Positions 5,080 to 28,594 of a DNA stretch of 62,573 nucleotides are shown one piece after another. Both the position numbers and the translations under genes were made by a program. The notes beneath the pieces were generated by a model. The model saw only the letters and a program-made list of their open reading frames with translations, had not been told where the DNA came from and did no database searches. The first letter of the stretch is position 1; each line of letters starts with the position of its first letter. The stretch is from Cyanosarcina radialis HA8281-LM2 (GTDB lineage: Bacteria > Cyanobacteriota > Cyanobacteriia > Cyanobacteriales > CCAP-1448): positions 1 to 62,573 of the forward strand of contig JAHHHA010000035.1 of assembly GCA_019359615.1 (NCBI GenBank), written 5' to 3'.

Positions 5080-7899
5080 TTAATTCACCCTGGCGCGGAA
5101 ACGCACAAAACCGTAGGAATTATATGGACTGGGTGGGTAGGTATTTCCTGTAGAGGCAGGTAAAGATGTAGCTCCTTCAACTACTTTGACGACTACAGCA
5201 CCATTGGTATTTGCCGCCTGTCCCGATGATGTGACGTTACCAGAATTATCGAACTTTTTGCAGACGGTAGGCGTAGTGGCATCGCCCGCAGCATAAGAGC
5301 GCCCAGCATCGGCATCAGATGCATTCGTCAACAAGCTGTTAGGAGCAGTTGGTAAAGCAGAGCTATTTAAAGCTAAACCAATACCTGAATTAGCGTTATA
5401 TGTATTGGCGACAAATGTTTGATTGGTTGGGACTAAATCGCAAACTGTGATATTTTTGGCTGTTGTTATTGTATTCAGGAAGTAGATCGTGTACTCAACT
5501 ACATCACCTGGTTTGACATTTCCACCACTAATTGCCCCTCGCAAATAAGTATTTTTAGTAGCAGGCCAATTAGCATGATCGTCATCTGTAGTGCCACTAT
5601 CGTTAACAAATACGTTTAAGGGAGTGTTATCGTTGGGATTTTTGGCACTGTCGCCATTAATTGCTGTGATGCGTTTGACTAAGAGTAATTTGGGTTGCAG
5701 AACGATGTTCAAGGCATAATCTTCTACTTCCCCATAGCTACCGCCGCCTGTAGGATTACTGGCAGTCATAGGAGTTTGATTCAAACGCAACCGAACGTAG
5801 GTTTGCCCATTAGTCAGTCCGCTCAAACCCGTCCAGTTGAGAGTGACATTACCATTAGTACCATTAGTAATAGTTTGAGCCACTCCTTCGCTGGCTTCAA
5901 ATTTGCCATTCCTATTAAAGTCAATCCAACCGACTAAGTAAGCGTTTTGACCCGTAGTATTATTAACTTTCACGGATACGCTGTAGCTGGTACTAGTGGT
6001 TGGTAAAGGATTAAAGCTGCTGACTGCATCTTCATCGTCAGTACCAGTCGTATCGTCACCATTAGCATTGGTGTTAGGGTTGCCATCTGTTTCTTTATCG
6101 GTAGCAACTGTACCTAAGTAAAGGTTATTCCTCAAAATGTGGCTGGCAGCGCTTCCTCCAGTGGCAATATCTTTATTGGTGCCATAGGTGTCTGGAGCAT
6201 CACCAAAGTCAGTATCATCTCCATCGATCAGAATGACTGGAGTTTGGGCAACTGTAAACTTGCCATAAACATAAGTATCGATATATCTGCCGTTGCCAAA
6301 AGAGTTACTATTATCTCCAAAACCTCCACCACTACCTGTTATTCCCCAAGTATGCGTGCCTCCTAACGTCCCGCTGGGAAGAGTAGTGGTCGCTCCTGAA
6401 GGATTGCTCAACCCGGTTTTATCGTCCCAGTAAACTTCTGTTTGAGAAGTGGCTGCACCCGATATGGCTTTATTGATAGTCAACCCAAAAGTAGTCGGTC
6501 CGCTATTTTCCACATCACCCGCAATAAAGTGATATTCTCCCACAATCGCTTGCAATCTTGCTTGATACGTTCCAACTGGAAGGTTAGTTCCGAGATTGGT
6601 TTTCCCATTCCAAAACACGGTCACTTCATTATTGGCATTAGTCTGACCTTTAAGAAACACATCCCCAGACCCATAAATGCCATCGGGGTTAAAACCATTG
6701 TTTGGATCGGCATCATTATCCACATCGATGATAATGGCGTAAGTTCCAGTAGCGTTGGTGGTGAATTTAAAGTTGCCGCTATCTTGTACTCCTGTGGTTA
6801 CTGATGGTGTAATGGTATTATCGACTCCTTGGTTATCTTCAAATCTAAAGTTTTGAATCGTCACCACACTCGCCGCCGATGGCTCTGGGTTTACAGTAGC
6901 TGGATAGCTGAGATATTGTCTGTATTTAGGAGAGACGCTGTTACCAGAAATGGGTACGCTCAAACCTGCGACCGGATTACCAGCAGCATTAGGAGAGTCA
7001 ACTCCTAATTGATTGGCAACCAGTTCGTAGACATATCCGCCAAAATCGTTTAGGTTTAATTGCCAGATATAATTAGTTCCTGGAAATCCGCCTGGAACTC
7101 GAATATAAAGATTGGCATCGGTAGTGTTATCAAAATCATCTGCATTCAAGCCCCAAAGAAACGACCAAAGCCGCCCACTATTGGTCGTAGGATTGGGTGC
7201 CGTGCTGGTATTAGGGGTAACGGAAACATCGAATTGCCGAAAAACGGTGTTTATGTCTGTAAGGCCTGAATTTCTGTTATATAATCTAATTTCATAAACG
7301 CCAGCTTGAGCGGCAGTATGTTGGATACGTCTGCCTCCCCCGTTGGTGCTGGTATCAATATTAGTTAACTGAGCGTATGTACTACAATTAGTGTTGTTGG
7401 CACTAGTTCCAAAACTACCTTGCGATCTATAGTTGGTGGCGTTAGTGGCTGCTGCACCAGCTTGTCCGAAAACTAACGTTCCAGATGCAGGTGGATAACT
7501 AGATCGGGTTCCAGAAAAATCTGCTAGATCGGAACCGACATAATAAATATCTACTTCCCAATCATCCCCAAAAGCGGTACCGCAAGCTGAAACATTAATT
7601 ACTTCTCCGGCTGACTGAATATCTACATAGATGGGTCGGTTGATTCTAGTCAGACCGACAGCACTGATATTTTCATAGGGAGAATCATATTCAAACAAAG
7701 CTTGAAAGGGATCTCCAAGCTGATAGCTGCCTTCAGCCGCAGCCGGTAACGCTACGCCCAGAACCACTAGGGCGCTCAAACTAGTTTTAGCAACGATTCT
7801 AGTCAGCAAAGATGCGATCGCACAATAAGTTTTAGGAGTTCCTTTGCTATTGGCTGAGGGTTGAAGGGATGAATTTTTGTGGAATTGAAATATTGACAT
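5080..7899 (-). CDS. Large secreted Asn/Thr/Gly-rich surface protein with a GEVED domain and a C-terminal DUF11-like repeat
   Basis: 939 aa with an N-terminal signal peptide (…LVVLGVALPAAAEG). The GEVED motif (…SYGEVEDYALNIV) is present. The C-terminal DUF11-like segment is (…VKPGDVVEYTIYFLNT…NITVCDLVP…). Composition is low-complexity N/T/G. Confidence 0.65.
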   Translation of the reverse strand: MSIFQFHKNSSLQPSANSKGTPKTYCAIASLLTRIVAKTSLSALVVLGVALPAAAEGSYQLGDPFQALFEYDSPYENISAVGLTRINRPIYVDIQSAGEVINVSACGTAFGDDWEVDIYYVGSDLADFSGTRSSYPPASGTLVFGQAGAAATNATNYRSQGSFGTSANNTNCSTYAQLTNIDTSTNGGGRRIQHTAAQAGVYEIRLYNRNSGLTDINTVFRQFDVSVTPNTSTAPNPTTNSGRLWSFLWGLNADDFDNTTDANLYIRVPGGFPGTNYIWQLNLNDFGGYVYELVANQLGVDSPNAAGNPVAGLSVPISGNSVSPKYRQYLSYPATVNPEPSAASVVTIQNFRFEDNQGVDNTITPSVTTGVQDSGNFKFTTNATGTYAIIIDVDNDADPNNGFNPDGIYGSGDVFLKGQTNANNEVTVFWNGKTNLGTNLPVGTYQARLQAIVGEYHFIAGDVENSGPTTFGLTINKAISGAATSQTEVYWDDKTGLSNPSGATTTLPSGTLGGTHTWGITGSGGGFGDNSNSFGNGRYIDTYVYGKFTVAQTPVILIDGDDTDFGDAPDTYGTNKDIATGGSAASHILRNNLYLGTVATDKETDGNPNTNANGDDTTGTDDEDAVSSFNPLPTTSTSYSVSVKVNNTTGQNAYLVGWIDFNRNGKFEASEGVAQTITNGTNGNVTLNWTGLSGLTNGQTYVRLRLNQTPMTASNPTGGGSYGEVEDYALNIVLQPKLLLVKRITAINGDSAKNPNDNTPLNVFVNDSGTTDDDHANWPATKNTYLRGAISGGNVKPGDVVEYTIYFLNTITTAKNITVCDLVPTNQTFVANTYNANSGIGLALNSSALPTAPNSLLTNASDADAGRSYAAGDATTPTVCKKFDNSGNVTSSGQAANTNGAVVVKVVEGATSLPASTGNTYPPSPYNSYGFVRFRARVN

Positions 7900-8176
7900 A
7901 GGATTTAACTTAATTTAGCGATCGCAAGTACATAGGTGCTAGAAACCACCCGAAATCCGTCAGCAATTGTGGTAAAAGCTTAGAAACCAAGGTTTTTGTA
8001 TAGGTGCGTATATATCCTAAAAAGTAATTTAAGCGATCGCGCTTGCCCTTCACATCCATATATTTGCGGAATCCTCTGAGCGTTTTGTTTAGTTTTTGGG
8101 GTTTTCACGGATGCAGTATCGGATGTGGGGGTGGTTTAGGAATAGGAGATCGATCTGGTGGGCGATCGACATCCTG

Positions 8177-8202
8177 GGAGACGTTGCATGCAACGTCTCT
8201 AC
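8177..8202. repeat. REP-like palindrome (ggagacgttgcatgcaacgtctctac) overlapping the stop codon of the RAYT gene
   Basis: The hairpin sequence is directly visible. It is the same family as the copies at 8459-8486, 8956-8982 and 27956-27980. Confidence 0.8.
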
Positions 8203-8798
8203 ATCCATAAATTTGTCGGGTTATTTTTATCTGATTCCCATTTGGCTGGGTTGTCGATGATATATTGTCGAATTCGATCTAAGGAACCATCTGCACGGAT
8301 AATATGTTCGTAGAATCGGGTTTGCCAACCAAAATCGCCGCGATCGTTTTTCCGACACCAATGGGTAACGGCAGATTTATACGATCGCACAATTGCACCC
8401 AAAGATTTGGCATTGGGGGAAATGTCAGACATAGATTGACACCGTGCGGATTGACGTTGTAGAGACGTTGCATGCAACGTCTCTACATGGGGTGTAGGCA
8501 CAGACGATAATTCTGCTGGGCGATCGATAACAATAATGCCATGGACGTGGTTCGGCATAACGACCCAGGTATCTATATGTATGTAATTAAAATGCCCTGG
8601 AATATCGACCCAAAATTGTTGGGCAATTTTGCCAATTAGCGATAGTTGCATCTGACTGGCGATAATTTCGCCGAAAAAATGTTGGCGATCGCGGGTGCAG
8701 ATGGTAACGAAATACCAACCATTCGCGGCATAATCGCGATCGGGTAATCTGGTCGATTCTATCCGGTATTTGCCTTGATACCGTGGTGCCGTTGTCAT
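8199..8798 (-). CDS. REP-associated tyrosine transposase (RAYT, IS200/IS605 Y1-HuH family)
   Basis: 199 aa. It has an HuH motif (VMPNHVHGII) and the conserved RAYT N-terminal region (YFVTICTRDRQHFFG). A C-terminal Y-containing region is present (RSYKSAVT…GWQTRFYEHIIR). The gene is flanked on both sides by REP-like palindromes and also contains one. Confidence 0.8.
   Translation of the reverse strand: MTTAPRYQGKYRIESTRLPDRDYAANGWYFVTICTRDRQHFFGEIIASQMQLSLIGKIAQQFWVDIPGHFNYIHIDTWVVMPNHVHGIIVIDRPAELSSVPTPHVETLHATSLQRQSARCQSMSDISPNAKSLGAIVRSYKSAVTHWCRKNDRGDFGWQTRFYEHIIRADGSLDRIRQYIIDNPAKWESDKNNPTNLWM
8436..8515. repeat. REP-like element inside the RAYT coding region (core gtagagacgttgcatgcaacgtctctac at 8459-8486)
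   Basis: Perfect 9-bp inverted repeats around ttgcatgcaa. The insertion is in-frame and is translated as …PHVETLHATSLQ… within the RAYT ORF. Confidence 0.8.
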
Positions 8799-22157: not shown

Positions 22158-22306
22158 ATTTTCTTAAAAATGTTTTGGAGGAGAAACAGTCAAAGCCATC
22201 ATAAGCTGATGTCATCTATTTTGCCAGTTGCAGGGGAGCGGGGCAGAGGGGCAAAGGGGCAGAGGGGCAGAGGAGAGTTTTTAACTCCACACTTAACACT
22301 CCACAC

Positions 22307-23635
22307 TTAACACTTCTTCAGCCTCACCATAAAAAAGCCATCCATCTGATGTTGGTGAGGCCAAACTTTAATCCAGCCATCTGGAGAGGTAAAAGCAGCA
22401 GCGGGGAAATTTGCAGGCGGCGGTTCGATTTGCCACTGGGGAGAATTATCGAGAAGCGATCGCACTACTGCTTCATTTTCTAGCGGATTGACGGTGCAAG
22501 TAGCGTATACCAAAATACCTCCTGGTTTCACCCAGGTAGCTACCCGCTGTAAAAGTTGTTGTTGCAGAGTTGCCAGTTCTTTAACTTTCTCTGGTGTTTG
22601 TCGCCAACGAGCATCAGCGCGACGGTGCAAAGTGCCCAAGCCAGAACAAGGAGCGTCGAGCAAAACGCGATCGACCGTACTGGGAAATTTAGCCTCTCGG
22701 CTATCGCCAGTCAAGATTTTAATGGAGTGCAGGTTTAATCTGTGGGCGTTTTCGTCAAGTTTTTTGAGGCGAGAAGCTTTGGCATCGCACGCCCAGATCT
22801 GCCCTTTGTCGCCCATTAGTTCGGCAATATGAGTGGTTTTTCCACCAGGTGCAGCACAAGCATCAATTATGACTTCGCCAGGTTGCGGATCGAGCAAGTA
22901 AGTTACTAGTTGGGCGCTACTATCTTGAACCGTCCACCAACCAGCGCTGAATCCCGGTAAGTTTTGAATCGCGCCGATATTTCCCGTCAATCTCAAGGCT
23001 TGGGGTAAATCAGGAACATTACTGATAGAAATTCCTGCCGCTTTCATAGCGTTTGCTACTGTTTCTACGTCAGTCTGTAAGGGGTTTACTCGCAGATCGA
23101 TCGCTGGGGATTGATTCATCCAGATACACAGTTGTTCGGTGGCGGCAAAACCTAATTGTTCTAACCAAGTTTGAATTATCCAGTCGGGAAAGCTATGCAA
23201 TACACCCAGACGTTCGATGGGGTTTTCGATCGATTCTAGGGGATCGGGTGATAGGCGAAGGTATTGCCGCAATAAACCATTAACAAACCCCGTTAATCCA
23301 GAAAATCCGTTTGCTTTGGCTAATTCAACGGTGGAATTAACTGCCATGGCATCGGGAATGTTGAGATAGCGCAGTTGATATAAACCCAGATGGAGAATGA
23401 GGCGGAGTTGTGGCGATTGTTGGCTGGCTTTCTTTTTTGCCAGTCGATCGATTAAAGCATCGAGCGATCGCTTTCTTCTGGTGCAACCATAAACTAATTC
23501 CGTCACTAAAGAGCGATCGGCATTGTTCGAGGTACTGGAATTCAACGCTCGATCTAGAGCTATATCAGCAAATGCTCCTTGGTGAATTGAGGAGAGCGCG
23601 ATCGAAGCTAGTTGCAGAGAGTTTTTAATTATCAA
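22307..23635 (-). CDS. rsmB: 16S rRNA (cytosine967-C5)-methyltransferase
   Basis: 442 aa. The N-terminal NusB-like region and the NOL1/NOP2/Sun methyltransferase core (…DACAAPGGKTTHIAELMGDKGQIWACDAKASRLKKL…LLDAPCSGLGT…) are present. Confidence 0.9.
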   Translation of the reverse strand: MIIKNSLQLASIALSSIHQGAFADIALDRALNSSTSNNADRSLVTELVYGCTRRKRSLDALIDRLAKKKASQQSPQLRLILHLGLYQLRYLNIPDAMAVNSTVELAKANGFSGLTGFVNGLLRQYLRLSPDPLESIENPIERLGVLHSFPDWIIQTWLEQLGFAATEQLCIWMNQSPAIDLRVNPLQTDVETVANAMKAAGISISNVPDLPQALRLTGNIGAIQNLPGFSAGWWTVQDSSAQLVTYLLDPQPGEVIIDACAAPGGKTTHIAELMGDKGQIWACDAKASRLKKLDENAHRLNLHSIKILTGDSREAKFPSTVDRVLLDAPCSGLGTLHRRADARWRQTPEKVKELATLQQQLLQRVATWVKPGGILVYATCTVNPLENEAVVRSLLDNSPQWQIEPPPANFPAAAFTSPDGWIKVWPHQHQMDGFFMVRLKKC

Positions 23636-23907
23636 GTTTCAATTTAACGATCGAAGTGCTAGTTATTCTCTAGCTTGCCATAGCATTGAGAGCGCGATCG
23701 AGCCTTCTTCAGCCCGTTAGTCCGCCAGGGGTTGAAAGCCCCCGACAGTGCATCGTTCTTGAGAGGAGCGACGATGATGTCCGTTATTTTTTGTCTTTGG
23801 CACGATCTTAAACCTCGATCGCGTATAGCCTAGAGGTATCTTGTCACTCGTTAAATTCCTGTAAAGACGCGGGATCTCGCGTCTCTACAACTCCTAAACT
23901 TCTGATT

Positions 23908-24324
23908 ATGGAACGCGGTTTAATTTGGTTACCTCTACTGGCACTTTTTATTTGGCTAACTTGGTCCGGTTGGAATGAGTATCAAAAAGTCGAAGCTTAT
24001 CGGCGCTGGGCATCTCAGTTTGAAAAAGCCAAGTACGATATCTATGCGGTTTTGGGCCAAAAAGGTAATGATATTACTTGGGGAAAACCCAGTCGTAAAG
24101 GGCCGGTAGACCTAGAAACTTTTTCCCTCAAAGATGTGAGGTCGATCGCCTTGCTGGTAGATAATAGCCCTGTCGATCTCGAAGTACCACCCGATCGAGG
24201 CCGCACGATTTACCTAGAATTTCTCTTCTTTGATGCAGCTAAATCGGTGAAAATTCCCTTTACAGAAATCGCGCTCGCCGTCGATTGGACTAAGTTTTTA
24301 CAGCAAGAATTGCCAAGAGTTTGA
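23908..24324 (+). CDS. Hypothetical membrane-anchored protein. Its 3' end is the source of two downstream duplicated fragments
   Basis: 138 aa with an N-terminal TM segment (LIWLPLLALFIWLTWSGW). The C-terminal …PVDLEVPPDRGRTIYLEFLFFDAAKSVKIPFTEIALA… recurs at ~25140-25215 and 25895-26045. Confidence 0.5.
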   Translation: MERGLIWLPLLALFIWLTWSGWNEYQKVEAYRRWASQFEKAKYDIYAVLGQKGNDITWGKPSRKGPVDLETFSLKDVRSIALLVDNSPVDLEVPPDRGRTIYLEFLFFDAAKSVKIPFTEIALAVDWTKFLQQELPRV

Positions 24325-24511
24325 TGAGCGATCGCTATAACTTAAAAGGGAGCGAGTTAACGTTCTCGATCGCCAGGTGCTAGTAACTTCTCGGACGCAA
24401 CGAATAATCTCTATACGATCGGTATGCAACGGGATTGTTAGACCGTAGCTCGCAGATCTCTCACAGATCGCCTATGATAAATGCGTTCTCGTATGTCTGG
24501 GAGTTTCAACC

Positions 24512-24730
24512 ATGTCTCTCGCTGAGTTAATTCCTTTGGTCAACAATCTGAGCCAGTCAGACAAATTATCACTCTTCAAACTCCTAGCCACGCAAATTCC
24601 AGACGCTGAACTAGAAGCCATCTTTTCTGCATCAGAGTATCCGGTTTGGTCGCCTTACGACGCAACGGAAGCTGCCAACATTCTGATGCAGATGATTCGG
24701 GATGACCGAGAGACATCTACTCATGTCTAG
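24512..24730 (+). CDS. Small protein (72 aa), upstream partner translationally coupled to a retropepsin-like protease
   Basis: Its stop overlaps the start of the next gene (ATGTCTAG). Confidence 0.45.
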   Translation: MSLAELIPLVNNLSQSDKLSLFKLLATQIPDAELEAIFSASEYPVWSPYDATEAANILMQMIRDDRETSTHV

Positions 24731-25115
24731 TACGATCGAATTTCCCTTTGCTGACGATGAAGCATTACCCACGATTCCCATCGCTTTGAGTTATGCAGAC
24801 TTTTCAGTTTCGGCGAATGCACTGCTAGATACTGGATCTACAGTCAATTTATTACCTTATGACATCGGGCTACAATTGGGCGCAATTTGGGAGGAGCAAA
24901 CTGTTCGCTTGCCATTGGCTGGAAATCTTGCCAAGGTTGAAGCACGGGGTTTATTTGTGCGCGTTCAAATTGGGAATTTGGAACCAGTTCGCTTAGCATT
25001 TGCCTGGGCAAATGCTTCTCAGGTGCCCTTAATCCTTGGGCAAACAAACTTCTTTCGAGAATTTGATGTCTGTTTTCAGAGCTCGCGACGTACGATCGAA
25101 ATTATCCGCTTCTAA
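24723..25115 (+). CDS. Retropepsin-like (clan AA) single-domain aspartic protease
   Basis: The catalytic D-T-G-S motif lies in …SANALLDTGSTVNLLPYDIGLQLGA…, and the size (~130 aa) is typical of bacterial retropepsin-like proteins. The likely start is MSSTIEF at 24723; the ORF opens at 24702. Confidence 0.55.
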   Translation: MSSTIEFPFADDEALPTIPIALSYADFSVSANALLDTGSTVNLLPYDIGLQLGAIWEEQTVRLPLAGNLAKVEARGLFVRVQIGNLEPVRLAFAWANASQVPLILGQTNFFREFDVCFQSSRRTIEIIRF

Positions 25116-25139
25116 TAACCGTCGATTTAATTTGAGCGA

Positions 25140-25215
25140 TCGCTTTACTAGTAGACGATCGCTCTATCGATCTGGAAGCGCCACCCGATCGAGGTCGCAC
25201 TATCTGTATTGTTAG
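25140..25215. repeat. Truncated duplicate (~76 bp) of the 3' end of gene 23908-24324
   Basis: The sequence …gacgatcgctctatcgatctggaagcgccacccgatcgaggtcgcactatctg… matches 24165-24225. Confidence 0.7.
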
Positions 25216-25589
25216 ACCGTGTTGATTTTGCGGAGTTCGACACGACCACCTGCAAAAATCTGCATCGTTAGCCGATACCCTTCCATCAATGACATTCCAA
25301 CAAGCAGTTCTGAATCAGCCTCGTCAACTGGAATGGTTAACAAGGCCTCATCCCAAATAACAACCGCTTCGTAAACGTTGAAAACACACTCGCTGCCGTC
25401 TCCGAGAATTGCCCGTCCTCGCCTTTTCCATGTCAGGTTTAGCTCATCAATCAGATCGGGAGGTAACGAAAGCCAACCATTGAATCCCGTATCGACGATC
25501 GCATCTTGCGTCGAGACTTTGCCATCAGCATGGCGAATTGAGAGCGGAATAATCGGTTCAAACTCGACATTAACAAACCCAGTAATCAT
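25212..25589 (-). CDS. Retropepsin-like (clan AA) aspartic protease, second paralog
   Basis: The D-T-G motif lies in …QDAIVDTGFNGWLSLPPDLIDELNL… The start MITGF at 25589 overlaps the upstream gene's stop as TATGA. The ORF as called extends further upstream but has no RBS or homology support. Confidence 0.55.
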   Translation of the reverse strand: MITGFVNVEFEPIIPLSIRHADGKVSTQDAIVDTGFNGWLSLPPDLIDELNLTWKRRGRAILGDGSECVFNVYEAVVIWDEALLTIPVDEADSELLVGMSLMEGYRLTMQIFAGGRVELRKINTV

Positions 25590-25858
25590 AAATTTTTGGG
25601 GGTGCGTCCGCCAAAACGACGAACGTGGCGAGAACCGATGCGAACGATCCAGATTTGAGCATCGGGGTGGCGGGCTTCGAGGCGATCGCAAGCTGCAATT
25701 TCGCTCTTATCGACTTCAAAATCTCCGGTTTCGATGTCGATCGCCACAATTTTACCTCGATCGCCCTCTTCAACTTGAGGACGCACCTGAGTTTCATAAA
25801 TCTCGTCGCCGCGTCGAGCAAATTCTTCTTTGCTGTAACGGGGTTGTCGAACTGTCAT
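25586..25858 (-). CDS. Small protein (90 aa), translationally coupled upstream partner of the second retropepsin-like protease
   Basis: Its stop overlaps the protease ATG. It is charged and hydrophilic (…GKIVAIDIETGDFEVDKSEIAACDRLEARHPDAQIWIVRIG…). Confidence 0.45.
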   Translation of the reverse strand: MTVRQPRYSKEEFARRGDEIYETQVRPQVEEGDRGKIVAIDIETGDFEVDKSEIAACDRLEARHPDAQIWIVRIGSRHVRRFGGRTPKNL

Positions 25859-25894
25859 CAGCCTGACCTCGTTTCAACGATTGTCCCTTCATTT

Positions 25895-26045
25895 TAATTT
25901 GAGCGATCGCTTTGCTAGTAGACGATCGCCCTGTCGCTCTCGAAGCATCACCCGATCGAGGTCGCACGATCTGCCTAGAATTTCTCTTTTTCGATGCAGC
26001 TAAATCGGTAAAAATTCCCTTTCCAGAAATTGCGATCGCACTATT
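25895..26045. repeat. Second duplicate (~150 bp) of the 3' end of gene 23908-24324
   Basis: It encodes …VDDRPVALEASPDRGRTICLEFLFFDAAKSVKIPFPEIAIA…, which matches …VDNSPVDLEVPPDRGRTIYLEFLFFDAAKSVKIPFTEIALA…. Confidence 0.75.
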
Positions 26046-26292
26046 TCAAGATCTTCTGGTCGGCTGCACTAGGGTCATTGCTGTCGGCAGGCTTTTGGGA
26101 GTTGTTAGACTTGCTTCCAAACCACCAAGTTGCGACCCCAACAAGTAGGATCAGTACGAGACACGTCGCCCACCACGGTGGGTCGCCCGGTTCCATTCCT
26201 CCGCATCGAGGACAGATCGGAGCATTGTCGGCGACGGGAGAGTAGCCGCAATGCCTGCATTTCCCAATTCCCATCAGAAATTGACCTCCCAT
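26041..26292 (-). CDS. Small zinc-ribbon plus single-TM protein (83 aa)
   Basis: It has CxxC…CPRC pairs (…GKCRHCGYSPVADNAPICPRCGG…) followed by a hydrophobic helix. Confidence 0.35.
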   Translation of the reverse strand: MGGQFLMGIGKCRHCGYSPVADNAPICPRCGGMEPGDPPWWATCLVLILLVGVATWWFGSKSNNSQKPADSNDPSAADQKILK

Positions 26293-26416
26293 TGCTGCCC
26301 AGAACCGAGTTAAGCCGCTGCGTTTCCAGTTTTTAGCAGATAGTGCAAGTATACTATTCGCAGTCGATTTAATATCCTAAATTAGATGATTAGCCCGATC
26401 GCCAATTACCTATTTC

Positions 26417-26929
26417 TCATTCCAAAGGTAGTGACGTTGAAGCTTTAATTTCATTTAAAACAATACTGGTGCGAATTCTGTCTACACCTGGAAGGCGGGT
26501 AATCTTTTCAGAGAGTAACTTTTCTAAGTGCTGGTGGCTGGGAACGACTACTTTTAATAAGTAGTCAAACTCCCCGCTGAGATGGTGGCATTCTAAGACT
26601 TCTGGCAACTCCTTGACTTGGCAGCAGAATTGCCCGACGCACTCCGGTTGATGGTGCGCCAGCGTTACCTGGGCAAAACATAGCAGATCTAAACCCAAAG
26701 CTTCTCGCTTTACCAGAGTGACGTAGCGATCGATCGCCCCGCTGGCTTCTAACTTCTTCAGTCTTTTTTGCAATCCCGGTGGCGAAAGATTGACATGACG
26801 CGCTAATTCCGTGCTGGTGATGCGACCGTTCTCTTGCAGCAGGGATAAAAGGTGTCGATCGATCTCATCTAGATAGTGAAGCTGCTTCGAGTTCTCGGCA
26901 ACTGGCTTCACCTTGAGGGTTTTTGGCAT
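26417..26929 (-). CDS. Lrp/AsnC-family transcriptional regulator
   Basis: The HTH is (…ITSTELARHVNLSPPGLQKRLKKLEASGAI…) and an RAM/AsnC_trans C-terminal domain is present. The gene is divergent from the HPPD gene. Confidence 0.85.
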   Translation of the reverse strand: MPKTLKVKPVAENSKQLHYLDEIDRHLLSLLQENGRITSTELARHVNLSPPGLQKRLKKLEASGAIDRYVTLVKREALGLDLLCFAQVTLAHHQPECVGQFCCQVKELPEVLECHHLSGEFDYLLKVVVPSHQHLEKLLSEKITRLPGVDRIRTSIVLNEIKASTSLPLE

Positions 26930-27376
26930 TGGCGGTCCGATCTCTGGAGAATTATAGAGATATCTTAGGTTAATTATGTATACCAGATCGAGGATTTTTA
27001 TTAACTATTGTAACTTGTCGGTCTATAAAAATTATTTTTATAATCTAAACAGGTACTTTTAGTTAAAAAACAAAACTATTAAGTTTTGTGTACTAGAAGA
27101 CAGACCTGGCTCCCCAGCCAGCCATAAAACAGTGTGGAGTTCGAGCGACCTCTCCCCCCTGCCCCCCTCTCCTGCAAGGGGAGGGGGGAGGAGCGAAATC
27201 TCTAGGTCTTTAAGCCCCTCCCCTCGTAGGGTAGGGGTTTGGGGAGAGGTCTATTTTGAGCCGATCGAACTCACTATAAAACCGTGTGGAGTTTGACTTC
27301 ATCTTCCCAACTTCATTAGACGCAAGATCTCGCATTTCTACCTCGGCCCCAAGGGTGGCGAACAGGAAACATTACC

Positions 27377-28594
27377 ATGAACAATTCAAAACAATTGGTT
27401 TCAAGCCTCCCCTTGTCAGGCGAAGCCAATCCAACATCCGAAATTAGATCCCCCCTACCCCCCTTAAAAAGGGGGGCAAGCCAAAATTCCAAATCGATCG
27501 ACTTTTGCCCGATTAACAAATTCGATCACTTAGAGTTCTACGTTGGCAACGCCAAACAGTCAGCGATCTTTTATTCTCAGTGTTTTGGATTCGCGATCGC
27601 GGCTTACCAAGGCTTAGAAACGGGCAGTCGGGAAATTGCCTCCTATGTAATGGAACAAGGCGATATTCGCTTCGTTTTAAGTACCGCCCTCAGTCCAGAT
27701 AGCCCGATCGCTCGCAGCGTCCTTCAACATGGCGATCGCGCGGCCGTTATTGCTTTTGAAGTTCCAGATGCTGTCGTCGCCTACAAAGAGACAACAGCGA
27801 GAGGTGCAGTAGGTGCGATCGCTCCGACAGAAACCGAAGATGGATATGGAATATTCCGCTATTCTGCCATTCAAGGGTATGGCGACACCCTAATTAAATT
27901 CGTCGATCGCAGCGATTACCAAGGTGCATTTGCCCCCGGTTTCCAACGCCGCAATGTAGAGACGTTGCATGCAACGTCTCAGGGGTTGGGATTAAAGGCG
28001 ATCGATCACGTAGTCGGCAACGTGGATTGGGGAGATATGGATCGATGGGTGAAGTTTTTCGCCGAAACCATGGGATTCGAGCTATTAGTGCATTTTGACG
28101 ATCGCGCCATTTCCACCGAGTATTCGGCTTTGATGTCGAAGGTAATGAAAAACAGCACGGGGTCGATCAAACTGCCGATCAACGAACCAGCTACAGGCAA
28201 GAGGCGATCGCAGATCGAAGAGTATCTCGAATACAATCGCGGTCCTGGAGTGCAACACGTCGCCCTGTCTACCGACAACATTATCGAAACGGTAACTAAA
28301 TTAAGAGCGGCAGGAATGGAGTTTCTGCACGCACCAAAAACCTATTATGAAGACTTAGCCGCGCGGGTGGGGCATATTGACGAACCGATCGAGAAATTAG
28401 CAGAACTGGGAATTTTAGTCGATCGAGATTCTGAAGGCTACTTGCTGCAAATCTTTACTCAACCCGTGCAAGATCGTCCCACCTTGTTCTTTGAAGTCAT
28501 CGAACGCCACGGAGCGCAGGGTTTTGGCGAGGGTAATTTTAAAGCCTTGTTTGAAGCGATCGAGCGAGAGCAAGCGTTGCGAGGCAATCTTTGA
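27377..28594 (+). CDS. hppD: 4-hydroxyphenylpyruvate dioxygenase
   Basis: 405 aa with two VOC/glyoxalase-like modules (FDHLEFYVGNAKQSAIFYSQCFGF…; …GVQHVALSTDNIIETV…; …FFEVIERHGAQGFGEGNFKALFEAIEREQ). The N-terminal ~45 aa overlap a dispersed repeat, so the true start is uncertain. An in-frame REP-like palindrome lies at 27956-27980. Confidence 0.85.
   Translation: MNNSKQLVSSLPLSGEANPTSEIRSPLPPLKRGASQNSKSIDFCPINKFDHLEFYVGNAKQSAIFYSQCFGFAIAAYQGLETGSREIASYVMEQGDIRFVLSTALSPDSPIARSVLQHGDRAAVIAFEVPDAVVAYKETTARGAVGAIAPTETEDGYGIFRYSAIQGYGDTLIKFVDRSDYQGAFAPGFQRRNVETLHATSQGLGLKAIDHVVGNVDWGDMDRWVKFFAETMGFELLVHFDDRAISTEYSALMSKVMKNSTGSIKLPINEPATGKRRSQIEEYLEYNRGPGVQHVALSTDNIIETVTKLRAAGMEFLHAPKTYYEDLAARVGHIDEPIEKLAELGILVDRDSEGYLLQIFTQPVQDRPTLFFEVIERHGAQGFGEGNFKALFEAIEREQALRGNL
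27956..27980. repeat. REP-like palindrome (gtagagacgttgcatgcaacgtctc) inserted in-frame inside the HPPD coding sequence
   Basis: The sequence is directly visible. It is translated as …RRNVETLHATSQG… between the two VOC modules. Confidence 0.8.

Follow-up and report, generated by a model that had tools for sequence, protein, structure and literature searches.

The attC sites of integron cassettes are recognized by the pairing of an R'' box (RYYYAAC) with an R' box (GTTRRRY), imperfect L''/L' arms, a variable centre and a length of about 57–141 nt, and at least two such sites within a few kb, with no IntI, define a CALIN. Toxin-antitoxin cassettes of chromosomal integrons are known to include an arrangement in which the genes are inverted and have their own promoter; to our knowledge, a retropepsin-like aspartic protease is not a described toxin class. 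The attC × attG route and the capture of chromosomal DNA into cassettes are, as far as we know, confined so far to laboratory assays with E. coli and Vibrio. Taxon-specific attC sites and integrons have been documented in cyanobacteria (PMC4889954, PMC8352920), and previous work has reported that IntI mediates insertion at GWT sites of the genome, that imprecise excision can carry along adjacent genomic DNA and that attC is easily lost by slippage (bioRxiv 10.1101/2022.09.11.507474).

The window analysed here is a 62,573-nt contig from the metagenome-assembled genome Cyanosarcina radialis HA8281-LM2. It carries two modules, each encoding a small protein and a retropepsin-like aspartic protease, among three copies (R_orig, R_mid and R_third) of a segment, R, derived from the 3' part of a conserved 138-aa gene. 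Both modules are probably integron-type gene cassettes on the minus strand (probability about 0.6), located outside any visible integron and stranded beside the reiterated gene end. The features of the locus are as follows:

23908–24324, plus strand: intact open reading frame of the 138-aa conserved cyanobacterial gene, whose 3' part is the source of R
24143–24278, plus strand: R_orig, the R copy within the functional gene (codons ~79–124)
24325–24360, no strand: 36-nt spacer from the gene's stop codon to where crossover is predicted in the cassette 1 attC (attC end taken from alignments)
24349–24450, minus strand: attC ("T") of cassette 1, from covariance model R1 and homology to the L084 and L085 copies
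24361–25130, minus strand: cassette 1, from TTAAATCGAC (25130) to the G of the attC R' box (24361), from the DNA homology block and end comparison
24512–24730, plus strand: s1, the 72-aa small partner of protease 1 (PADLOC PDC-M52A, E 5e-9)
24723–25115, plus strand: p1, a retropepsin-like aspartic protease with LLDTGST, 130 aa counted from the ATG used by homologues (PF13650, PDC-M52B)
25131–25206, plus strand: junction TTTGAG (25131–25136) and R_mid, a truncated gene end (25137–25206, R positions 1–70)
25208–25220, minus strand: attC stub of cassette 2, ACGGTCTAACAAT, 13 nt from the start of the site that include R'' and the stop codon of p2, with ~80 nt missing
25208–25897, minus strand: cassette 2, from TTAAAAT (25897) through s2 and p2 to the truncated attC, from DNA homology
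25212–25589, minus strand: p2, a 125-aa clan AA aspartic protease of the DTGF type with IVDTGFNG (TIGR03698, below cut-off)
25586–25858, minus strand: s2, the 90-aa small partner of protease 2
25898–26039, plus strand: junction TTTGAG (25898–25903) and R_third (25904–26039, R positions 1–136)

In cassette 1, s1 and p1 overlap by 8 nt (ATGTCTAG), and the same overlap, with s1 upstream of the protease, is found in loci L084, L086 and L092; no s1 gene is called in L085, yet the block aligns there. The p1 protein narrowly passes the cut-off of PF13650 (Asp_protease_2; 25.7 bits against 24.3, E 1.9e-5), the N-terminus of s1 shows a weak VapB15-antitoxin-like match (E 0.024), and the two adjacent genes match both component HMMs of PADLOC PDC-M52 (s1 with A, E 5e-9; p1 with B, E 9e-45). 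In cassette 2, s2 and p2 overlap by 4 nt (ATGA). The p2 protein, named "clan AA aspartic protease" by both NCBI and JGI, matches TIGR03698 (clan_AA_DTGF) with E 2e-13 and 50.6 bits, under the 57.35-bit cut-off, and among 30 homologues D33 and F36-N37-G38 are invariant while T34 and G35 are at least 90% conserved. Cassette 2 has no match in PADLOC, and fold comparison of s2 gave no informative or antitoxin-like match. The DTG regions of p1 and p2 were aligned to each other by hhalign; sequence searches found no PDB relatives of the proteases, and the AF2 model of p2 is mostly beta, but its pLDDT of 44.6 is too poor for use. An earlier note on this DNA had described a plus-strand coupled pair with LLDTGST and a minus-strand pair with IVDTGFNG, reading them as two-gene cassettes in which a small partner is coupled to a retropepsin-like protease. 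Both pairs are upheld at 72 + 130 aa and 90 + 125 aa, with gene overlaps that are conserved in other loci, and the retropepsin-like identity is borne out by the PF13650 score of p1 and by the TIGR03698 match and invariant D33 of p2. The same note's view that single-domain bacterial retropepsin homologues are rare does not stand here, as searches returned 2682 relatives of p1 and 948 of p2 (the best 120 at 81–92% and 78–90% identity, respectively) and cassette 1 is already catalogued as the PADLOC candidate PDC-M52.

Both modules are mobile and recur as discrete DNA units. The cassette 1 block (24384–25143) is 85–87% identical at the DNA level in L084, L085 and L086–L089, all unrelated contexts, with this identity seen in JSC-12, Leptothermofonsia and Nostoc sphaeroides; cassette 2 (25208–25860/25903) is 80–83.6% identical in the unrelated contexts of L078, L080 and L082, and likewise in Nostoc C117, Leptolyngbyaceae JSC-12 and Gloeocapsopsis dulcis. 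In contrast to this 80–87% DNA identity of the cassettes, the core neighbour gene reaches at most 76% protein identity to anything found. For both cassettes the homology extends from TTAAA(A)T to the attC GTTA, and its edges fall within a few bases of the same points in every copy, whereas the contexts all differ, so that the same cassette with G|TT crossover boundaries is seen in different surroundings. The cassette starts fit TTRRRY. A G precedes the start of cassette 2 in L082 and L090, giving GGTTAAAAT; in the window the base before each start is A instead of the canonical G, and the cassette 2 copies in L078 and L080 start with AT instead of TT. No conserved attC half-site precedes cassette 1 in the other loci. 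The array neighbours of the cassettes encode ParE/antitoxin, PIN, DUF433 + DUF5615, TumE and Uma2 proteins.

The cassette-linked element is T, an imperfect hairpin of ~92 nt that lies 3' of p2 in cassette 2 copies elsewhere; in cassette 1 copies, the window's among them, it is found upstream of s1 in antisense orientation. Its boxes, length and pairing agree with those of attC sites. In a 14-copy alignment, the 5' TAACAA and 3' CGTTA are invariant save one substitution in one copy, 18 pairs are 90.4% paired (25–44% with slid partners), 7 pairs show compensatory changes, and 26 cells are changed on both sides against 9.4 in shuffles, with none of 500 shuffles reaching 26. The R'' box is GTCTAAC in cassette 1 and 2 copies and varies in other cassettes (e.g., GCATAAC), while R' consists of GTTA and variable bases, the fit to RRRY being loose past GTTA. 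The arms are bulged and covarying, with a loop and a less constrained centre, and a constant unpaired G separates two arm segments (..GTT G CAC..), which may or may not be equivalent to the canonical extrahelical bases that impose strand choice. With covariance model R1, built in this analysis, the cassette loci yielded 22 sites, whereas ~0.95 Mb of control DNA from the 76 core-gene loci yielded none. The T sites of a locus are co-oriented and lie 3' of ORFs, as in L080 (eight), L084 (four) and L082 (three), each of which fits the CALIN definition. Intact T sites are also recognized by an independent attC model, the published "Cyanobacteria" sequence profile (HMM) rebuilt from the supplement of Ghaly et al. 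2021 (PMC8352920), which matches T sites at full length with a best E of 6.7e-15 (cassette 1 attC: L085 E 7e-8, L084 E 2e-7; cassette 2 attC: L082 E 5e-7, L080 E 2e-6) and gave a single partial match, E 0.14, in the core-gene loci. It is because T is a cassette-linked, covarying hairpin that occurs in co-oriented arrays and matches this profile that the modules are interpreted as integron gene cassettes.

Within the window, the cassette 1 attC is homologous to the intact L084 and L085 copies and retains R'' GTCTAAC (24441→24435) and R' GTTAAC with its G at 24361. It is the only full match to model R1 in the window (66.4 bits, E 2e-13), but its 3' arm is degenerate with four broken pairs, and the site is judged degenerate because the published profile reaches only E 0.075. 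The genes of cassette 1 are inverted relative to this attC, and the cassette would therefore be driven by its own promoter. The genes of cassette 2 are co-oriented with theirs and the p2 stop codon lies inside R''; a full attC directly follows that stop in all four other cassette 2 loci examined, and the stub in the window is a 13-nt exact match to 24434–24446. With one scoring attC and one 13-nt stub, the window falls short of a CALIN. No recombinase domain was found in ten mid-sized ORFs of the window and no integron-type integrase in the fetched cassette loci, where the only recombinase called is XisC of the hupL element in L086; likewise, neither the window ORFs nor the fetched loci examined contain a complete integron (the tyrosine recombinase IntI, attI and Pc beside an array).

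The 138-aa gene is conserved across cyanobacteria (76 + 47 orthologous loci, 52–76% identity), its product has a hydrophobic segment at the N-terminus, and it has no family match in Pfam or NCBIfam. It is retained intact to the left of the cassettes. The three copies of its end reported by the earlier note are present and far above chance in BLAST comparisons within the window: 24143–24278 and 25904–26039 are 87.5% identical over 136 nt (E 1e-44), 25126–25206 and 25893–25973 are 90% identical over 81 nt (E 3e-27), and 24143–24209 and 25137–25203 are 80.6% identical over 67 nt (E 2e-12); no fourth copy was found in the window at the DNA or protein level. About 18 bases to the left of R (25119–25136, 25886–25903) are common to R_mid and R_third and missing from R_orig, and a 13-nt junction, GCGATCGCTCAAA|TT in minus-strand reading, is identical beside R_mid and R_third, each joined to a cassette start. 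R_third stops ~45 nt short of the gene's end, at a HIP1 octamer on its right that adjoins the stop of a convergent ORF (26041–26292); another HIP1 octamer (GCGATCGC, 24326–24333) lies within the 36-nt spacer. HIP1 is common, with 78 copies in the window. R_third is considered a decaying remnant because its substitutions T119P and L123I affect residues that are invariant in 122 orthologues. The differences between R_orig and R_third are mostly synonymous (pN/pS 0.31, Fisher p 0.008), and all three pairwise R comparisons share the synonymous bias. R_orig has N86 and S87, whereas R_mid and R_third have the more orthologue-like D86 and R87; over the 70–136 nt compared, R_mid is nearest R_third with R_orig as the outlier, a pattern that cannot tell the candidate histories apart. 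None of the three copies is a recombination site; R_mid and R_third represent displaced and decaying remnants of the gene's 3' part, left by former copies or alleles, their origin being judged from this single locus. Since none of the 123 orthologous loci has extra R copies, cassette proteins or attC sites nearby, the gene end is not a general integration site.

Several other explanations bear on these observations. As the window comes from a metagenome-assembled genome, the order of the locus might be an assembly artefact, yet a Logan contig (L077) produced by a second assembler, possibly from the same reads, is 100% identical over 22289–27475 (5.2 kb), and collapse or chimerism of the R repeats is not expected because they are short (70–136 nt) and 10–20% diverged, which makes an artefact highly improbable. 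Alternatively, T might belong to the dispersed palindromic repeats (MITE- or REP-like) or act as a transcription terminator accompanying small genes, considering its position at the 3' ends of ORFs, the stable hairpin of some copies and the lack of an integrase in view. Such an identity is improbable given the full-length match to the published attC profile, the AAC/GTT boxes, the constant bulged G, the covarying arms and less constrained centre, the strict co-orientation in arrays and the coincidence of the cassette homology edges with the GTT of T; moreover, T has no U-tract and no Rfam match. A further idea, that of the earlier note, is that the ~150-bp segment is itself an attC-like or att-like site at which cassettes were serially inserted. 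The bracketing of two cassettes by three co-oriented copies, with both cassettes abutting the copies at the same position, speaks in its favour, but it corresponds to in-frame coding sequence from the 3' part of a conserved gene, shows no inverted repeats of attC-like architecture, is matched by neither attC model, does not recur elsewhere in the window and is reiterated in none of the 123 orthologous loci, while each cassette has a genuine attC of its own. The segment's role as a recombination site is thus largely refuted and very unlikely; what stands of the earlier proposal is the mobility of both cassettes, the involvement of an attC-type mechanism, operating at a separate hairpin per cassette, and more than one cassette-associated event.

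How the gene-end copies arose is less sharply constrained. They could have been produced by in situ tandem duplication, through unequal crossing-over or slippage (perhaps at the HIP1 octamers found at several breakpoints) and independently of cassette mobility, followed by cassette exchange. R_mid and R_third are spaced 767 nt apart, R_mid with its junction resembles R_third with its junction, duplication of 25207–25973 recreates the attC stub beside R position 70, and HIP1 octamers adjoin both cassette–R junctions and the right edge of R_third, with another following shortly on the gene stop. Nevertheless, a first event placing a cassette between two gene ends and an exact cassette swap would still be required, and the pN/pS of R_orig and R_third is unlike gene-versus-pseudogene decay, albeit in a weak test, so that this route appears rather unlikely. 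About equally unlikely is the import of units (gene end, spacer, attC and cassette) from different donor lineages by natural transformation and homologous integration, either Campbell-type or by homology-facilitated illegitimate recombination in the gene end, with no local integrase. The units adjoin the very gene whose fragment they carry, which indicates homology-driven targeting, and the synonymous bias of all three R pairs and the residues at positions 86 and 87 fit divergent alleles of separate donors. On the other hand, the numbers are small, the ortholog searches found no donor allele or related locus (no close relative of the source genome was found in any collection searched, the best match to the 138-aa gene being 76% identical), and the unit boundary lies exactly at the attC crossover point and the first base of the cassette, a coincidence that indicates integrase cuts at some stage.

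Under the preferred reading as integron-type cassettes, an integrase of the integron type acting in trans may have moved the cassettes between cyanobacteria and placed them at a secondary "attG"-type site of the genome, either inside the 138-aa gene or next to it. A more detailed history can be outlined tentatively, at somewhat less than even odds. A cassette would have come to adjoin position ~24135 of the gene, and a partial duplication would have restored or kept an intact gene, possibly because IntI excised a composite circle ("gene end + cassette + attC") imprecisely and the circle was re-inserted, or because such a circle was integrated through single-crossover homologous recombination. 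One round of reiteration of the unit would then have followed, through tandem duplication accompanied by cassette exchange or through a second import, after which one deletion may have extended from R_mid position 70 to position 14 of the attC of cassette 2 and another taken away the end of R_third. The cassettes would finally be fixed in place because both attC sites are now defective.

A single D-T-G motif per ~125–130-aa protein leads us to presume homodimeric activity of the proteases, which the small protein may bind and restrain or to which it may serve as a substrate, and the modules could thus act as addiction, toxin-antitoxin-like or phage-defence pairs. The assignment of two abundant, uncharacterized protease-partner families (948 and 2682 protease relatives returned) to the cyanobacterial integron cassette pool would explain why near-identical DNA occurs in distant lineages, and it offers a handle for testing the function of the pairs through toxicity, partner cleavage and phage defence. 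The locus may also be a case in nature of cassettes left behind outside an integron, their attC sites decayed. Should cassette insertion and gene-end duplication prove to be linked, the locus would illustrate how a conserved chromosomal gene can be reshaped by integron activity and yet survive; if they are not, it reflects an ordinary lineage-specific rearrangement around two mobile cassettes. The most far-reaching view is doubtful. It takes the locus for a natural fossil of cassettes that the integrase inserted at a secondary site inside a conserved gene, with duplication of the 3' part saving the gene every time, for instance through imprecise excision of a composite circle followed by re-insertion or recombination, and it sees in the protease-partner pairs a new protease-based family for addiction or defence that cyanobacterial integrons have spread; if true, it would provide field evidence for the attC × attG route and for chromosomal DNA capture into cassettes.

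Among known systems, the islands that target gene 3' ends (tRNA/tmRNA type) and bring a replacement 3' end, with their own integrase and att repeats identical or nearly so at the two ends, resemble the locus in that direct repeats of a gene 3' end bracket the insert with an intact gene on one side and tandem insertions yield reiterated copies; here, however, there is no integrase, the inserts are only 0.7–0.8 kb, the copies are 80–90% identical (10–20% diverged) and unequal in length, and the orthologous gene is not a recurrent target elsewhere. The proteases resemble the PF13650 and TIGR03698 families in size (~125–130 aa), single D-T-G motif and profile matches, with p2 under the TIGR03698 cut-off and both assignments based on sequence profiles, but their conserved coupled small partner is absent from the family definitions. 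The phage-defence candidate PDC-M52 (Payne et al. 2024, bioRxiv 10.1101/2024.01.29.577857) shares the two-gene order, with s1 and p1 matching A and B; PDC systems are predictions from "guilt by embedding", and PADLOC has no counterpart of cassette 2. The modules resemble the toxin-antitoxin cassettes found in sedentary chromosomal integrons in having two small translationally coupled genes, in the inversion of cassette 1 relative to its attC (implying its own promoter) and in the classical toxin-antitoxin pairs among the array neighbours (ParE, PIN, DUF433/DUF5615, TumE), but differ in that a retropepsin-like aspartic protease is the larger protein and neither partner has a convincing antitoxin-family match. 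Unlike CALINs, which usually have two or more attC sites, the locus has one recognizable attC and a stub, with no IntI found, and its bracketing by reiterated neighbour-gene ends is not a known feature of cassette insertion. With CALINs and genome-inserted cassettes it nevertheless shares promoterless or self-promoted ORF units of 0.7–0.8 kb, an imperfect terminal hairpin with RYYYAAC...GTTRRRY boxes that matches the published attC profile, a TTRRRY start, co-oriented arrays in other genomes and solitary copies in unrelated chromosomal contexts.

The two convergent modules of small protein plus protease, cassette 1 (s1, 24512-24730, and the p1 protease, 24723-25115, plus strand) and cassette 2 (s2, 25586-25858, and the p2 protease, 25212-25589, minus strand), recur in other genomes outside their present surroundings. 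Compared as DNA, the copies of cassette 2 in Nostoc C117, Leptolyngbyaceae JSC-12, and Gloeocapsopsis dulcis show 80-83.6% identity to the one here, and those of cassette 1 in JSC-12, Leptothermofonsia, and Nostoc sphaeroides show 85-87%; every one of these copies has an unrelated neighbourhood, and the blocks of homology end sharply. Many of the neighbourhoods consist of toxin-antitoxin genes in rows, and one is the XisC-excised hupL element. In contrast, protein identity to the adjacent 138-aa core gene nowhere exceeded 76% in the collections searched (76 + 47 loci, none syntenic). Judged by these comparisons, both cassettes are discrete mobile DNA units. In the Nostoc sphaeroides copy of cassette 1 (CP045226.1, locus L086:3707-4423), which lies within the hupL element interrupting the NiFe-hydrogenase large-subunit gene, the cassette adjoins PIN and DUF433 pairs and its attC is reduced to the first ~30 nt.

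The repeated gene-end copies, ORF pairs, and motifs described in the earlier note are all present in the window, which belongs to a metagenome-assembled genome; a contig made by a different assembler, possibly from the same reads, matches it at 100% across 5.2 kb. Read in minus-strand order, the locus comprises the following elements, with R denoting the repeated 3' part of the 138-aa gene and T a hairpin of ~92 nt:

26292 to 26041, minus strand: ORF
25904-26039: R_third, positions 136 to 1; 87.5% identical to R_orig over 136 nt, E 1e-44
25897 to 25208: junction CTCAAA|TTAAAAT, then cassette 2, ending in a 13-nt attC stub
25137-25206: R_mid, a shorter R copy, positions 70 to 1
25130 to 24361: junction CTCAAA|TTAAAT, then cassette 1, with a complete but degenerate attC and crossover at G24361|T24360
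24349-24450, minus strand: T, the attC of cassette 1, upstream of s1 and antisense; homologous to the cassette 2 tail
36-nt spacer
23908-24324: intact 138-aa gene, entered from its stop codon; its 3' part is the source of R
24143-24278: R_orig, within the 138-aa gene

In this order, each cassette therefore joins an R copy through an identical 13-nt sequence, GCGATCGCTCAAA, which corresponds to about position 24135 in the gene. A distance of 36 nt separates the outer end of the cassette 1 attC from the intact gene's stop codon. The HIP1 octamer GCGATCGC, present in 78 copies in the 62.5-kb window, occurs beside both cassette-R junctions (25136-25143 and 25903-25910), where R_third ends on the right (26032-26039), and just after the stop codon of the intact gene (24326-24333). 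The 83-aa product of the minus-strand ORF at 26041-26292 has a hydrophobic segment and an N-terminus resembling a zinc ribbon, and gives only weak family and PHROG matches; the ORF's stop codon directly adjoins R_third where that copy is truncated, at a HIP1 octamer, and the ORF is possibly one more inserted gene.

In other genomes, the cassette 2 block runs ~90 nt beyond the p2 stop codon, and in the window this tail is gone after 13 nt (25208-25220). Copies of cassette 1 elsewhere carry T in exactly the position seen here, upstream of s1 and antisense, and the ideas that the 13-nt repeat ATTGTTAGACCGT (24434-24446 and 25208-25220) is a target-site duplication and that 24349-24446 is a displaced cassette 2 tail were therefore dropped. 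Across an alignment of 14-15 T copies, the 5' TAACAA and 3' CGTTA boxes are conserved throughout, one substitution excepted, and a bulged G is constant, with compensatory changes in the arms (CCCGTT/AACGGG, CCCAAT/ATTGGG, CCCAAC/GTTGGG, CCTGGT/ACCAGG, and CAC/GTG versus CAG/CTG). The 18-pair structure has 90.4% of its cells paired, versus 25-44% after sliding the partners. Two-sided changes occur in seven pairs and in 26 cells, versus 9.4 cells in shuffles, and none of 500 shuffles reached the observed value. Integron attC sites have the architecture R'' RYYYAAC and R' GTT..., and R'' is GTCTAAC in both cassettes. The central attC region is usually described as unconstrained, so that conservation there is unexpected; a well-conserved central motif, AGAGGTTATCTGC, nevertheless occupies columns ~62-76 of alignment A5 (e.g. 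L080:7715-7730). Rfam returned no match in 23600-26500, and promoter and terminator sites predicted in the region were no more numerous than in shuffled sequence.

A covariance model built from these T copies found 22 sites in the cassette loci versus 0 in ~0.95 Mb of the 76 core-gene loci. The sites are co-oriented within each locus and lie 3' of ORFs (eight in 8.4 kb in L080, four in L084, and three in L082), while the window holds one full site, scoring 66 bits and degenerate in that four of its pairs are broken. A sequence profile rebuilt from the published 'Cyanobacteria' attC covariance model (Ghaly et al. 2021, PMC8352920, supplement 3), with the consensus GCCTAACAAGTCGCTGCAGCGGACGG...CCAAGGTTATCTGCCGCCGCTGAGCTTAGTCGTTAGGC and the central motif in the form CCAAGGTTATCTGCC, matches the same T sites over their full length (best E 6.7e-15). 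The matches include the cassette 1 site (E 7e-8 in L085 and 2e-7 in L084) and the cassette 2 site (E 5e-7 in L082 and 2e-6 in L080), versus a single partial match in the core-gene loci (E 0.14); the window T copy reaches only E 0.075. Cassette 2 starts with TTAAAAT and cassette 1 with TTAAAT, and in L082 and L090 a G precedes the cassette start, matching the G|TT crossover expectation. The genes of cassette 2 are co-oriented with their own attC, the stop codon falling within R'', and those of cassette 1 are inverted relative to theirs. Integrons are documented in cyanobacteria (PMC4889954), and on these sequence grounds we assign both modules to the integron gene cassettes. The mobile cassettes and attC-type recombination proposed earlier are thus real, whereas the repeated gene end had been the wrong sequence to regard as the recombination site: the R copies are ruled out in that role as coding sequence without a match to either attC model.

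The eight-site locus (L080:129-8336; Leptolyngbyaceae cyanobacterium JSC-12, CM001633.1 1671238-1679615) is a cassette array that begins directly after the 3' end of an RNase III gene, includes Uma2, iHKD/ParB-CE, a B_lectin-like protein, cassette 2, and a DUF433 + 131-aa gene pair, and has been entered by an IS110 element, with no integrase in view. Likewise, no integrase was found among ten candidate ORFs scanned in the window, and the plasmids of Oscillatoria PCC 7112 and Acaryochloris that carry attC matches have no annotated integron integrase in their ~9-kb flanks (~39 kb upstream on the Oscillatoria plasmid, whose gene row contains one weak attC match only). In the window, both cassettes are probably immobilised, since one attC is degenerate and the other is a stub. 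Between the cassette 1 attC and the s1 leader lies an 11-nt tandem duplication (24448-24469; GATCTGTGAGA GATCTGCGAGC, minus strand) that is absent from the L084, L085, and L086 copies. Further along, between an Lrp/AsnC regulator and a 4-hydroxyphenylpyruvate dioxygenase-like gene, a 21-nt direct repeat (ATAAAACAGTGTGGAGTTCGA / ATAAAACCGTGTGGAGTTTGA) at 27124-27296 surrounds a 23-nt inverted repeat rich in G+C (27164-27186 / 27215-27237); the whole resembles a small dispersed repeat element.

The reiteration of the gene end is peculiar to this locus among those compared: a fourth R copy is absent from the window at both the DNA and protein levels, none of 123 orthologous loci (76 + 47, genome and metagenome scans) has extra R copies, cassette proteins, or attC nearby, and a lookup of the identical protein returned nothing beyond the same locus. 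R_third is a remnant, as it carries T119P and L123I at positions invariant among 122 orthologues and lacks the final ~45 nt of the gene. R_mid matches R_third at 90% across 81 nt, counting left-flank bases common to both, and R_orig at 80.6%. R_mid and R_third have states in common against R_orig; in the first 70 nt, R_orig has 9 unique changes, R_mid 6, and R_third 2. Differences between R_orig and R_third are skewed towards synonymous sites (pN/pS 0.31, Fisher p 0.008, on small counts), a bias that hints at different alleles rather than a parent and its decayed copy. Trichormus sp. NMC-1 (L066) has the 138-aa gene twice (5210-5731 and 8001-8414): the second, near-complete copy is 2.3 kb upstream of the first, and its N-terminus is joined to part of the adjacent 1746-aa sensor kinase; with no cassettes there, a cassette-related origin was dropped in favour of segmental rearrangement or scaffold error.

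Three histories fit these data, each of which requires at least one later deletion. The integrase IntI may have inserted a cassette at a secondary site in the gene, after which imprecise excision, using another site shortly after the stop codon, would have released a composite circle of gene end, cassette, and attC that re-inserted or recombined beside an intact copy; experiments have reported such insertion at GWT sites, as well as excision that is imprecise and ready loss of attC (bioRxiv 10.1101/2022.09.11.507474). Alternatively, tandem duplication of 25207-25973 followed by cassette exchange would reproduce both the junction of the stub with R position 70 and the 767-nt spacing, or units from other lineages may have been brought in through homologous recombination in the gene end. 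A link between the reiterated gene end and integrase activity is accordingly plausible but unproven.

As the earlier note had stated, the partner and protease genes overlap (8 nt for s1/p1 and 4 nt for s2/p2), with the motifs LLDTGST in p1 and IVDTGFNG in p2. Profile searches bear out the retropepsin-like assignment, with p1 matching Pfam Asp_protease_2 narrowly over threshold and p2 matching NCBIfam TIGR03698 (clan AA, DTGF type) at E 2e-13, under the curated cut-off; public sources name p2 a clan AA aspartic protease. All 30 p2 homologues compared have D33 and F36-N37-G38, and T34 and G35 are at least 90% conserved in them; p1 and p2 are only distantly related, their DTG regions aligning at hhalign E 0.015. 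Such single-domain bacterial homologues had been called rare in the earlier note, a view contradicted by the 948 relatives returned for p2 and 2682 for p1 (and 7354 for s2). For each of p2, p1, and s2, the best 120 relatives match at 78-95% identity, and those with a name belong almost entirely to cyanobacteria of many orders. At every locus with both genes called, the partner lies 5' of the protease with the overlap unchanged. PDB sequence searches with all four proteins and a p2 profile gave no meaningful match, PHROGs gave none for any of the four, and the p2 structure model (pLDDT 44.6) was too poor for structure search.

The favoured reading is that each module would be a pair serving addiction or defence, the small protein either holding a dimeric aspartic protease in check or being processed by it. 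It is suggested by the conserved coupling, the toxin-antitoxin cassette company, the inverted, presumably self-promoted cassette 1, a weak antitoxin-like match of the s1 N-terminus, and the match of cassette 1 to both components of the PADLOC candidate PDC-M52, predicted by 'guilt by embedding' (bioRxiv 10.1101/2024.01.29.577857); a literature search for retropepsin-like proteases as toxins found nothing relevant. Integron gene cassettes of cyanobacteria are already known, and cassette 1 is already listed as a defence candidate. What is unusual is the repeated gene end, a footprint specific to this lineage.
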